64,000 nt of DNA, from assembly GCA_046726355.1 (NCBI GenBank), contig JBKPAI010000124.1:24468-88467 (forward strand), written 5' to 3'. Of the stretch, positions 21,231-23,656 are shown one piece after another. Origin of the DNA: Acidobacteriota bacterium. Its GTDB lineage: Bacteria; Acidobacteriota; Vicinamibacteria; Vicinamibacterales; CAVVIG01. The notes beneath the pieces are model-generated. The model was not told where the DNA came from, ran no database searches, and saw nothing but the letters and a program-made list of their open reading frames with translations. The stretch's first letter is position 1; each line of letters begins with the position of its first letter. Position numbers and translations under genes: made by a program.

Positions 21231-22190
21231 TCAGCGCGTAACGGTCACCGTGACATCCTGATAGCCGAGCAGCGCCCCATCGTCTGCGAGCGCGCGCAGA
21301 ACGTAGGTTCCTGCTGTCTCGAACGTCGCCTGCGCCACCCACTGTCCCTCCACCGGCACCGGCGGCGGGGTCCACAACGGCGCCCACGGTGAATTCGCTC
21401 CCGTCCTCGTGTCTTCCCAGACCTTCACCTGCGGCGGATCGAATTGCACGTTGCCGGGGCCGCGGTACACGAACCAGGAGAGGTGCAGGCCGACGGTCTT
21501 GCCGACCGTCACGCGCGCCGGCGGGATGTACGCCCGATTGACGCGGTCTTCAGCCGCGGCGGCCGTCGCTCTCGAATTGCCGGAACCGATCAGGTTGCGG
21601 CCGCGTGGCTTCGGCACGCCATCGTCATCGACGATCGCGACGAGCGACAGCGGCTCGCCGACTTTCGCGACAAGGGATTGGGCGGTCGGGATCGTGACGA
21701 TCGGACGTTTGTTGGCGCGGATTTCCGGGCTGCTCGTCCCGGCGCCGAGGGCACCGGTTTCCGAGGCCATCACGACATCGTTGACGAAGTAATCGGGCCT
21801 GAGCGTCGCAAACGCCTTCTCCGTCTTTCCTTTCGTTGTGAGCGTCCACACCATCTCGCGGTTGCCGAAATCCGCGGGAACGCGCACGCGGAACACGAAC
21901 CGGTTCCGCCGCGGCAGAAAACGCGTCGGCTGCCCCTGGTCGGGGCCGCCGGGCTCGATATCGTTGTCCGATCCGACCGCAACGTCGATCTCTTCCTCCC
22001 AGTTACGGTTCATGTATCCGAACAGGAAGTTGAACGAGCCGTCCTCGTTCTTTTCCCAGCCCTCGTACGCGGGCGATACGTTCTGGCCGGACGAATATGA
22101 TTGCGCCGCAGACAGTCCGGGCACGGACCCCGGGCCGACCAGCGCGAGCGCGCATAGTACGACTGCGTGAGCTCTCAGCCTTGTGCGCAT
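21231..22190 (-). CDS. secreted hypothetical protein, start/stop-coupled to the cytochrome c/monooxygenase-like gene
   Basis: Start set at the ATG giving MRTRLRAHAVVLCALALVGPG (signal peptide). TAATG overlap with the upstream stop at 22190-22192. No family recognised. Confidence 0.65.
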   Translation of the reverse strand: MRTRLRAHAVVLCALALVGPGSVPGLSAAQSYSSGQNVSPAYEGWEKNEDGSFNFLFGYMNRNWEEEIDVAVGSDNDIEPGGPDQGQPTRFLPRRNRFVFRVRVPADFGNREMVWTLTTKGKTEKAFATLRPDYFVNDVVMASETGALGAGTSSPEIRANKRPIVTIPTAQSLVAKVGEPLSLVAIVDDDGVPKPRGRNLIGSGNSRATAAAAEDRVNRAYIPPARVTVGKTVGLHLSWFVYRGPGNVQFDPPQVKVWEDTRTGANSPWAPLWTPPPVPVEGQWVAQATFETAGTYVLRALADDGALLGYQDVTVTVTR

Positions 22191-23656
22191 TACTGCTGCT
22201 GGCGCTGCTGGTTCGACGTCGTGTTGGTCGACGGTTTCATGACCGGCACATTGCACAGCGGACAGCCGATGATTACGTCGCTCTTGTTCTTTTCGCGGCG
22301 CTTCGCCATCTCCTGCTGGAATTGCTCTTCCGTCAACGAGACCTGCTGACCGAGGTCGATGAACATGTTCGCTACGGAACGGTTCCCCGATCCCTGCCAG
22401 TTCCTCGGGTCGGGTACGTTCTTATTGGCCGGCGAATTGTCCATATAGCCGATGATGTGGAGGATTGTTCCTTTCGGCAGCAGCGGCGCGGCATCGTCGT
22501 CGTAATCGTAGCCGCGCACCCAGTTGTGATCGTACCCGGCGCACGTCAGGGTCTGGATGTTGATGCCCCAGATGGCTTCGAGACACATCCGCGCCCCGGG
22601 CGCATGCAGGTGCGGCTCGAACGAGGTGATCTTGGTGTGCTCCTGCAGTACCGTGTAGGCGTGGAGCTGCTGGTTCGCCTCCATCGCGCGGATATCGATA
22701 TCGAGCCCGTTGCCCAGGCCGCGCACCGACCGCTTCAGCGTCGGCACGTACCCTTTCGGATGCAGCTTGAATGCGATCTCGAGGTGCGCCTTCGTATCAC
22801 GCCCGTTCGAGTGCAGGTGGACCGAGTTGGAGACGATGCTCGACCCGGCCTTCAGGAGCCGTCCGGCCTGCGGGTCAAAAATGTCCGCGTTGCGGCCGAC
22901 CTCGTGAACCGGCCATGACGTGCCCGACTCATCGACCGGGTCGATGTTCTGCGCGGCGTTCTCGCCCACGCGCGTGCTCCAGATCATGTGGTGGAACACA
23001 TATCGGCCGCCAACCGTGGTCCGGCCGGATCCGTCATTCGGAATGTCGTTCACTTCCTTGATCTCGAGGGCTGCGACATACCGATCCTCGGTCAGCCCGA
23101 CCGGGACGCTCTCGATTTCACCCCACCAGTCAGGAGCATTCGCCCTGACCAGCACCTCGCCGGTGGAAACGACGAGGTCCGGCGTCCCGATGCTCCACGC
23201 CGCGCCGTTCTCGGCGAAATGAACAGGCGCCGGCATGTCGGCGGGATTTCCACGAGGCGCACCGCTGTCGGCCCATCGCGCAATCGCCGCGATCTCCGCC
23301 TCGTTCAGCGACGGGTCGTTCTTGTACTTCTGAATGCCGACGTTCTTCTCGATGTACCACGGCGGCATCACCCCGGCGCGCGGACCCAGGCCGGTCCGCA
23401 GCTTGATCGATCGCGCCCACGGACGCACTTCTTCATACGTGACGAGCGACATCGGCGCGACACCGTCGGGCCGGTGGCATTTCTGACAACTGCGCTGAAG
23501 GATGGGGGCGATGTCTCTCGTGAACGTCACCTCCGCTGAGGCGTCAGCTTGTTGCGCGGCCGGAGGCGGCGAAGCGGCGCTCGCGCCGGCGAGTCCACAC
23601 GTCAACCCGGTCGAGGCTGCCACGAGCACCCGGCTGATCCTGTTGAGTATTGACAT
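22190..23656 (-). CDS. cytochrome c domain fused to a copper type II (PHM/DBH-like) monooxygenase-like domain
   Basis: Signal peptide. CQKCH at residues 57-61 with downstream GVMPPW (Met-97). Then FHHM (222-224), VHLH (279-282), PHLH (348-351) and Met-357/405/431. Spacing parallels PHM H107/H108, H172, H242/H244, M314. Confidence 0.7.
   Translation of the reverse strand: MSILNRISRVLVAASTGLTCGLAGASAASPPPAAQQADASAEVTFTRDIAPILQRSCQKCHRPDGVAPMSLVTYEEVRPWARSIKLRTGLGPRAGVMPPWYIEKNVGIQKYKNDPSLNEAEIAAIARWADSGAPRGNPADMPAPVHFAENGAAWSIGTPDLVVSTGEVLVRANAPDWWGEIESVPVGLTEDRYVAALEIKEVNDIPNDGSGRTTVGGRYVFHHMIWSTRVGENAAQNIDPVDESGTSWPVHEVGRNADIFDPQAGRLLKAGSSIVSNSVHLHSNGRDTKAHLEIAFKLHPKGYVPTLKRSVRGLGNGLDIDIRAMEANQQLHAYTVLQEHTKITSFEPHLHAPGARMCLEAIWGINIQTLTCAGYDHNWVRGYDYDDDAAPLLPKGTILHIIGYMDNSPANKNVPDPRNWQGSGNRSVANMFIDLGQQVSLTEEQFQQEMAKRREKNKSDVIIGCPLCNVPVMKPSTNTTSNQQRQQQ

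Follow-up and report, generated by a model that had tools for sequence, protein, structure and literature searches.

To our knowledge, all non-coupled binuclear copper monooxygenases characterised to date (PHM, DBH and TBH) are eukaryotic and depend on ascorbate. PHM (EC 1.14.17.3), the catalytic core of PAM (1PHM and 1SDW; PF01082 and PF03712), is made of two beta-sandwich domains, and the two copper sites of such enzymes are defined as CuH and CuM, which lie about 11 Å apart (PMC11234856). The CuM site, ligated by two histidines and one methionine (His2Met), is characteristic of enzymes that activate O2 rather than of dehydrogenases (PMC11234856). Here we describe a gene pair, termed A and B, in a 64,000-nucleotide stretch of DNA from an Acidobacteriota bacterium of the Vicinamibacterales (assembly GCA_046726355.1, contig JBKPAI010000124.1, positions 24,468 to 88,467 of the forward strand). 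This whole stretch is called the window below, and coordinates are counted from its first letter (Table 1). Gene A encodes an exported protein in which a cytochrome c domain is fused to a two-domain module with the fold and the conserved copper ligands of PHM and DBH. It is probably a bacterial, heme-c-fused relative of these enzymes, one that would bind copper and carry out monooxygenase chemistry. Gene B encodes a secreted partner protein. In our literature searches, which left subscription literature outside their scope, no paper on a bacterial family combining cytochrome c with a PHM-like module was found, and the Pfam accessions of the copper monooxygenases were mentioned in animal studies only.

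A shares its core with the animal enzymes and differs from them in its accessories. Its two beta-sandwich domains follow one another as those of PHM do, and the HH...H ligands of CuH and the HxH...M ligands of CuM align residue for residue, with spacings of 57/69/80 residues in A versus 64/70/70 in PHM; the two proteins are about 8-11% identical in sequence, and A falls under the Pfam thresholds. Unlike PHM, A is bacterial and periplasmic, has an obligate neighbouring partner gene and no PAL domain, does not conserve the substrate-carboxylate residues R240, N316 and Y318, and carries an N-terminal cytochrome c domain, which is proposed to remove the need for ascorbate. DBH, tyramine beta-hydroxylase and MOXD1 (4ZEL) have the same two-copper core and include the best structural match to A. 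The extra N-terminal DOMON domain of DBH is a precedent for a three-domain layout, although DBH has this and a dimerisation domain instead of heme c, is ascorbate-dependent, eukaryotic and secretory, and has no B-like subunit.

A supply of electrons from heme to copper also has known counterparts. The cytochrome of cellobiose dehydrogenase (CDH) gives single electrons to the oxygen-activating mononuclear copper of LPMO, and cytochrome b561 does the same for DBH and PHM. The working principle resembles that proposed for A, but CDH and b561 have b-type hemes, which are located on another protein or work through ascorbate, whereas the c-type heme of A is covalently fused; the LPMO fold is also unrelated. 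In three-domain NirK, a copper enzyme of the bacterial periplasm, a class I cytochrome c is fused to the enzyme and serves as its own donor. A has the same kind of fusion on a putative periplasmic copper enzyme, but NirK is built of cupredoxin domains with type-1 and type-2 copper and reduces nitrite, whereas A has the PHM fold.

Fold, copper ligands and heme domain of A

The structure of A was modelled with AF2 on 26 diverse homologs, giving a mean predicted local distance difference test score (pLDDT) of 81.3 and a predicted template modelling score (pTM) of 0.78. Three helices within residues 45-130 (45-56, 74-89 and 119-130) are followed by beta-sandwiches at 161-300 and 305-441, and the signal-peptide region has low pLDDT and is unaligned among homologs. 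When the model was compared with the PDB by Foldseek, the top 31 matches were exclusively DBH and PHM: human DBH (4zel) was the best (E 3e-9), and 29 PHM entries (1sdw and others) followed with E 1e-7 to 7e-5 and probability 1.0. These matches span about 310 columns, the complete PHM core, with target-normalised TM values of 0.47-0.60. Behind them came PNGases and unrelated jelly rolls.

Profile searches and profile alignment lead to the same family. Neither A nor B had a significant match in Pfam or NCBIfam, and a search for the Cu2_monooxygenase domains, suggested by the initial annotation, found its matches in distant relatives of A rather than in A. Among 26 relatives, four matched Cu2_monoox_C and two matched Cu2_monooxygen. 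One distant relative (P0280) passes the gathering score of Cu2_monoox_C (23.6 bits against a cutoff of 23) and is the sole relative to do so; another (P0333) matches the N- and then the C-domain model in the correct order, and all N-domain matches of distant relatives are below threshold. In an hhalign comparison of the A family profile with rat PHM (a query identical to 1sdw_A, PAM residues 44-356), all six copper ligands paired one to one, M431 with M314 on extending the alignment (Table 1). This register agrees with the structural and Pfam evidence despite its weak statistics. The initial annotation had proposed that a cytochrome c is joined to a two-copper scaffold like that of PHM/DBH; three independent lines support this, namely Foldseek, the Pfam matches in distant relatives and the six-ligand alignment to rat PHM.

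The same six positions are kept across the family. Homologs of A form at least 7874 clusters at 90% identity, and an exhaustive search (E<=1e-30) gave 603 representatives at 50% identity. Residue conservation was counted in 36 full-length cluster representatives of 34-56% identity. H222 and H223 are each present in 35/36, and H280, H349 and H351 each in 34/36; M431 is found in 27/36, with four of the misses being gaps, and in 25/26 sequences of alignment A1. In the heme domain, C57, C60 and H61 are each kept in 34/36 and M97 in 35/36. The nine other histidines of A are conserved in 2-25 of the 36. As read from these alignments, the ligand pattern is far beyond chance. The initial annotation had placed its motifs (CQKCH at 57-61, GVMPPW from 95, FHHM with H222/H223, HLH at 280-282 and 349-351, and methionines 357, 405 and 431) exactly where the translation has them, and its candidates H222, H223, H280, H349, H351 and M431 stand; H282 (25/36), M357 (20/36) and M405 (4/36) are too poorly conserved to be kept. 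The conserved pattern is therefore HH...H...HxH...M, the pattern of PHM, and not two HxH motifs.

Two further sets of cysteines were noticed in A. A CPLC (CxxC) motif lies in the C-terminal tail (residues 465-468; 22253-22264, minus strand); it is conserved in the close clade as IGCPxC, is present in 8/36 representatives, and could be a Cu(I)-handling or a disulfide tail. In the CuM domain, C358 (22583-22585, minus) and C372 (22541-22543, minus) each occur in 20/36 representatives, which suggests a clade-specific disulfide.

The N-terminal domain of A has a single CXXCH and a downstream axial methionine candidate, M97, as class I c-type cytochromes do. Its profile matches are weak: Cytochrome_CBB3 reached E 0.056 (14.2 bits, under the cutoff of 27) and Haem_bd E about 0.05 in A, and weak matches to Cytochrome_CBB3 recur in 23/26 relatives (best 6.8e-5) and to Haem_bd in 15/26. 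An axial methionine motif of the PMPP type is typical of c551-like cytochromes, and the layout ...MPP...L(S/N)xxE(I)xx(I)xxW of A resembles that of c551-type and PSCyt-type cytochromes. The PSCyt-type identity considered in the initial annotation is not supported by profiles, with no PSCyt1 (PF07635) match in A or its relatives. By eye, the CxxCH...MPP...W..GA layout resembles PSCyt1; a profile match to PSCyt1 is given by a DUF1592 protein that neighbours A-B in related loci. Paralogs of A in related loci, of about 26-45% identity, align in tblastn from query residue ~43 onwards, so that the heme domain is included and the fusion is ancient.

The partner gene B and the linkage of the pair

B is identical to database protein P0121 and begins with a signal-peptide-like segment. 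At the junction, CAGTAATGCG, one base is common to the stop codon TAA of A and the start codon ATG of B, an overlap that is predicted to couple the two genes translationally. The coupled secreted partner reported in the initial annotation thus holds, by direct reading of the overlap and by strong synteny. Homologs of B form at least 7901 clusters, and B is extraordinarily conserved within the Vicinamibacterial clade. Neither a sequence search nor a profile search of the PDB gave a match for B, and the PKD profile (PF00801), found by Pfam in 3/120 relatives of a paralog clade, is absent from B itself. Invariant across B subfamilies are Q37, E44-G45-W46, G59-Y60, N62, N64, N77, Q88-P89, R96, D190-D191 and R244.

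No histidine, cysteine or methionine is among these invariant residues across the B subfamilies, and H237 and M61 are kept only in the close clade; a role as copper chaperone is therefore unlikely. A CopC/PCuAC-like chaperone or maturation factor was rejected for this lack of conserved metal ligands, and with it the suggestion of the initial annotation that B may serve maturation, as far as copper delivery is meant. The most conserved loops of B (63-98, 139-158 and 262-276) are below pLDDT 50 in the AF2 model, as would be expected of stretches that stay disordered until a complex forms. In Foldseek this low-confidence model gave only generic immunoglobulin (Ig)-like matches. B is most likely a stoichiometric, non-redox subunit of an A-B complex, whose loops probably dock on A and help to shape or gate the substrate site.

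Linkage of the two genes was followed by scanning one genome per species, which gave at least 588 genomes with relatives; synteny was taken from the best 80. These comprise Vicinamibacterales and other Acidobacteriota, Gammaproteobacteria (Pseudohongiella, Pseudomonadales), Gemmatimonadota, Bryobacteraceae and Acidimicrobiia. The pair occurs widely among bacteria of soil and sea. All of the best 80 genomes with A-B are metagenome-assembled, and several hold 2 to 4 or more loci. By tblastn, about 72 of 80 loci have B directly after A, on its downstream side, and about seven loci have no adjacent B. Tandem A-B arrays, with a separate B for every A, are found in seven loci (L014, with three pairs, and L027, L034, L061, L065, L071 and L076). 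A-B-A' triplets occur in related genomes (L019, L026, L040 and L043), and in L034 a B'-A' precedes A-B. These arrays and triplets indicate repeated duplication of a two-gene unit. Paralogous pairs have diverged together (A-A identity 0.39-0.71 versus B-B 0.40-0.58), and pairwise identities of A and B correlate overall with r = 0.61. The pair stands isolated among housekeeping genes in the window, with no second copy of A or B within the 64 kb. Contigs of distant A relatives are too short for informative gene context.

Genes within 6 kb of A-B were counted in 82 related loci. Methanol/ethanol-family dehydrogenases dependent on pyrroloquinoline quinone (PQQ) occur in 15/82 (for example at 3303-5834 in L027 and 2673-5222 in L016); some of them, of about 845 aa, carry c-type cytochrome domains at the N terminus and give a score with the 'acido-empty-quinoprotein' model as well. 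Other recurrent neighbours are DUF1592 proteins (9/82) and their partner DUF1552 (6/82), soluble glucose/sorbosone dehydrogenases (6/82), TonB-dependent receptors (5/82) and DUF5916/CBM9 proteins (5/82). CopC genes stand directly beside A-B in 6/22 gammaproteobacterial loci, and in one of them (L053) the mature CopC begins with a histidine and has a Met-rich stretch. All these are raw counts and thus weak hints: the CopC adjacency weakly supports a copper dependence of A, and the periplasmic dehydrogenases and outer-membrane importers faintly suggest a periplasmic catabolic setting. NHL propellers occur in 10/82 loci and not in the window. They were considered as a counterpart of PAL and rejected: PAL (3fvz) matched with only E 3e-14, behind generic TRIM-NHL matches, there was no PAL-type NCBIfam match, and only those 10/82 loci have one. 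A metagenome protein of 1251 aa (P0381), a distant relative of A, consists of a tandemly duplicated unit of AhpC/TSA (redoxin), cytochrome c and PHM-like module, an architecture that hints at a link of the copper module to thiol/peroxide redox domains.

Table 1. Coordinates of the features of genes A and B in the window, with CopC-domain genes of related loci in the last row
Feature	Coordinates	Strand	Description	Basis
Gene A	22190..23656	minus	Exported protein of 488 aa; cytochrome c domain fused to a PHM/DBH-like copper module of two domains	Open reading frame, translation, AF2 model, Foldseek
AGGAG ribosome-binding site of A	23663..23667	minus	6 nt upstream of the ATG of A	Sequence reading
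Predicted Sec signal peptide of A	23573..23656	minus	aa 1-28, MSILNRISRVLVAASTGLTCGLAGASAA; basic n-region, hydrophobic core, ASA-type c-region	By eye
Class I-like cytochrome c domain	23252..23539	minus	aa about 40-135, three helices	Weak profile matches and model helices
CQKCH heme c attachment motif	23474..23488	minus	C57, C60, H61	Invariant in alignment A1
MPP motif	23360..23368	minus	M97-P98-P99; M97 probable distal heme ligand	Invariant in alignment A1
N-terminal beta-sandwich, CuH domain	22757..23176	minus	aa about 161-300	Model strands, alignment to the PHM N domain, Cu2_monooxygen matches in P0264 and P0333
H222-H223	22988..22993	minus	Equivalents of PHM CuH ligands H107/H108	hhalign pairing
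H280	22817..22819	minus	Equivalent of PHM CuH ligand H172	hhalign pairing
C-terminal beta-sandwich, CuM domain	22334..22744	minus	aa about 305-441	Model, Foldseek, Cu2_monoox_C matches in P0280, P0306, P0333 and P0348
H349-L-H351	22604..22612	minus	Equivalents of PHM CuM ligands H242/H244	hhalign pairing
M431	22364..22366	minus	Equivalent of PHM CuM ligand M314	Extended hhalign, pairing the M of VANM in A with the M of SDEM in PHM
TAATG stop/start overlap of A and B	22188..22192	minus		Sequence reading
Gene B	21231..22190	minus	319-aa secreted partner, two predicted Ig-like beta-sandwich domains, no described family	Homolog search, synteny, AF2, Foldseek
CopC-domain genes beside A-B	L042 8547-9026; L053 8700-9209; L047 5054-5563; L056 5005-5517; L055; L048

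Proposed chemistry and competing explanations

We favour, with somewhat better than even confidence, the view that A-B is a bicistronic, periplasmic, heme-c-primed monooxygenase of the PHM type with B as its non-redox subunit. A would be exported by Sec and its heme attached at C57 and C60. The heme, ligated by His61 and Met97, would draw electrons from the respiratory chain, with bc1, a soluble c-type cytochrome or quinoprotein dehydrogenases of the periplasm as possible donors. Single electrons would pass from the heme to CuH (H222, H223 and H280), and CuH would reduce CuM (H349, H351 and M431), where O2 would be bound for hydrogen abstraction and then C-H hydroxylation of a periplasmic substrate. 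With the heme feeding CuH, the tethered cytochrome would take over the role that ascorbate, together with cytochrome b561, has in the animal enzymes; the periplasmic location and the fused cytochrome c suggest this replacement of ascorbate as the donor.

Several findings weigh against this scheme. In Pfam, A itself matches neither of the two copper-monooxygenase models, not even with the limit set at E<=1, and sequence searches of the PDB, with A alone or with the A1 profile, gave only weak matches to the heme motif. The hhalign figures are weak when taken alone (E 8.6e-4, probability 24%; E 6e-3 when extended). In the same alignment the substrate anchor of PHM, R240/N316/Y318, falls on E347/I433/L435 of A, and the position of E347 is a Q in distant relatives; since the peptide-carboxylate anchor is absent, A is not a peptidylglycine hydroxylase. 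The AF2 model of B, two Ig-like sandwiches, is weak (pLDDT 59), and the A-B complex is inferred rather than directly evidenced. The flanks of the pair vary between genomes, so that the two genes are the conserved unit, and the association with PQQ dehydrogenases in 15/82 loci is a raw count. Finally, the sequence does not fix the direction in which electrons move through the heme of A.

That last point leaves room for the reverse flow, in which the copper module oxidises a substrate without oxygen insertion and the cytochrome c passes the electrons to the respiratory chain, making A-B an energy-conserving oxidoreductase. Fused c-type cytochromes are the electron exits of many periplasmic dehydrogenases, and this logic is used within the same loci by nearby PQQ dehydrogenases that carry cytochrome domains. 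We nevertheless regard this as unlikely: all members of the PHM/DBH fold characterised so far are monooxygenases that activate O2, the conserved His2Met CuM site is the hallmark of that activity (PMC11234856), and the PDB matches of the A model include no dehydrogenase with this fold. The electrons might instead run from the cytochrome to the copper and end in a small molecule, with O2 (reduced to H2O2 or H2O), nitrite or peroxide as acceptor and detoxification or respiration as the function. The CuM site of PHM does bind nitrite, azide and CO in crystals (3mib, 3mlk and 3mlj), the AhpC/TSA fusion of P0381 hints at peroxide chemistry, and no residues for binding an organic substrate were identified in A by the PHM alignment. 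Multiple diverged A-B paralogs per genome and locus, however, fit substrate diversification better, a dedicated and equally conserved partner is not expected for simple reduction of O2 or nitrite, and no nitrogen-cycle genes recur near A-B in the related loci; a small-molecule reductase or oxidase is quite unlikely on these grounds.

Two other explanations give B or the copper module a different part. B may be the substrate or a cofactor precursor, with A hydroxylating or cross-linking a residue in its ultra-conserved glycine-rich loops and the operon producing a modified protein. Within the clade, loops such as ASETGALGAGTSSPE and WEDTRTGANSPWAPLW hardly vary, yet they have pLDDT <50, G147 of B is at least 90% conserved across subfamilies, and PHM-type enzymes do act on peptides. 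This is nonetheless highly improbable: an enzyme and a substrate with two large folded domains are seldom encoded as a stoichiometric gene pair, other B subfamilies paired with an A have these loops altered or lack them, and A lacks the peptide-carboxylate anchor of PHM. Equally remote is a vestigial copper motif, with A as an electron-transfer cytochrome joined to a copper-free binding domain of PHM/PNGase-F fold, for example a carbohydrate-binding one. PNGase F, which is not a metal enzyme, has the PHM fold and appears lower in the Foldseek list of A (7zgn, E 3e-4), and A fails the Pfam copper-monooxygenase models; the selective retention of six ligand positions over deep divergence, while other histidines and methionines vary, would be unexpected for a vestigial site, and CopC is adjacent in some lineages.

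The heme-primed monooxygenase can also be extended to a bolder proposal, which we consider rather doubtful. A-B would then be the founding example of a widespread bacterial class of copper hydroxylases that are heterodimeric, run on respiratory-chain electrons and work in the Vicinamibacteria of soil and the Gammaproteobacteria of the sea. Imported organics would be hydroxylated, and the resulting alcohols oxidised by the neighbouring PQQ dehydrogenases, which would return electrons to the heme in a self-priming loop like the coupling proposed for pMMO and methanol dehydrogenase.

Surroundings in the window and significance

The remainder of the window gives no functional clue to A-B; its flanks hold genes for IMPDH, an FAD oxidoreductase, a glycosyltransferase, a GDE-like glycosidase, an Hsp70-like cluster and SUF. 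Directly upstream of A on the minus strand (23958-24734) lies a gene for an FdhE-like zinc-ribbon protein, which matches FdhE_C at 5e-9 and reaches 74.8 bits on TIGR01562, well under the cutoff of 187.65; it is not recurrent beside A-B in other genomes. The intergenic region between the two (23657-23957) contains two 27-nt direct repeats (23734-23760 and 23767-23793, 93% identical), a weaker third copy, and a 31-nt inverted repeat (23771-23801 and 23910-23940, 81% complementary). It folds as a long imperfect hairpin with a minimum free energy of -101.9 kcal/mol (z -2.67). The repeats have no Rfam match and were found neither elsewhere in the window nor in 86 related loci. Further away, 11966-17564 (minus) encodes two Hsp70-like proteins, one with a DUF3731 'DnaK-related' domain, and then a DUF2760 protein, which together form an uncharacterised chaperone-like trio. 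An ordinary-looking SUF cluster at 28867-33650 (minus) comprises a class-V aminotransferase (SufS-like) and two SufB/D-family genes.

The heme of A may be of use as a built-in spectroscopic trigger with which electron delivery into CuH, and then CuM, can be timed. Whether the coppers of PHM/DBH-type enzymes work in an open state (about 11 Å apart) or a closed one (4-5 Å) is under current dispute (PMC11234856), and this handle bears directly on it. A-B may also yield a biocatalytic oxygenase without a need for ascorbate or NAD(P)H. For the family itself, a covalently tethered c-type heme would be a new solution to electron supply, and a probable chemistry is now assigned to two large groups of 'hypothetical' and 'cytochrome c' proteins that curated models have missed. 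The A-B family would thereby extend PHM/DBH chemistry to abundant soil and marine bacteria, in which it is represented by no fewer than 588 genomes at species level and by clusters from metagenomes in their thousands, often with several copies per genome.

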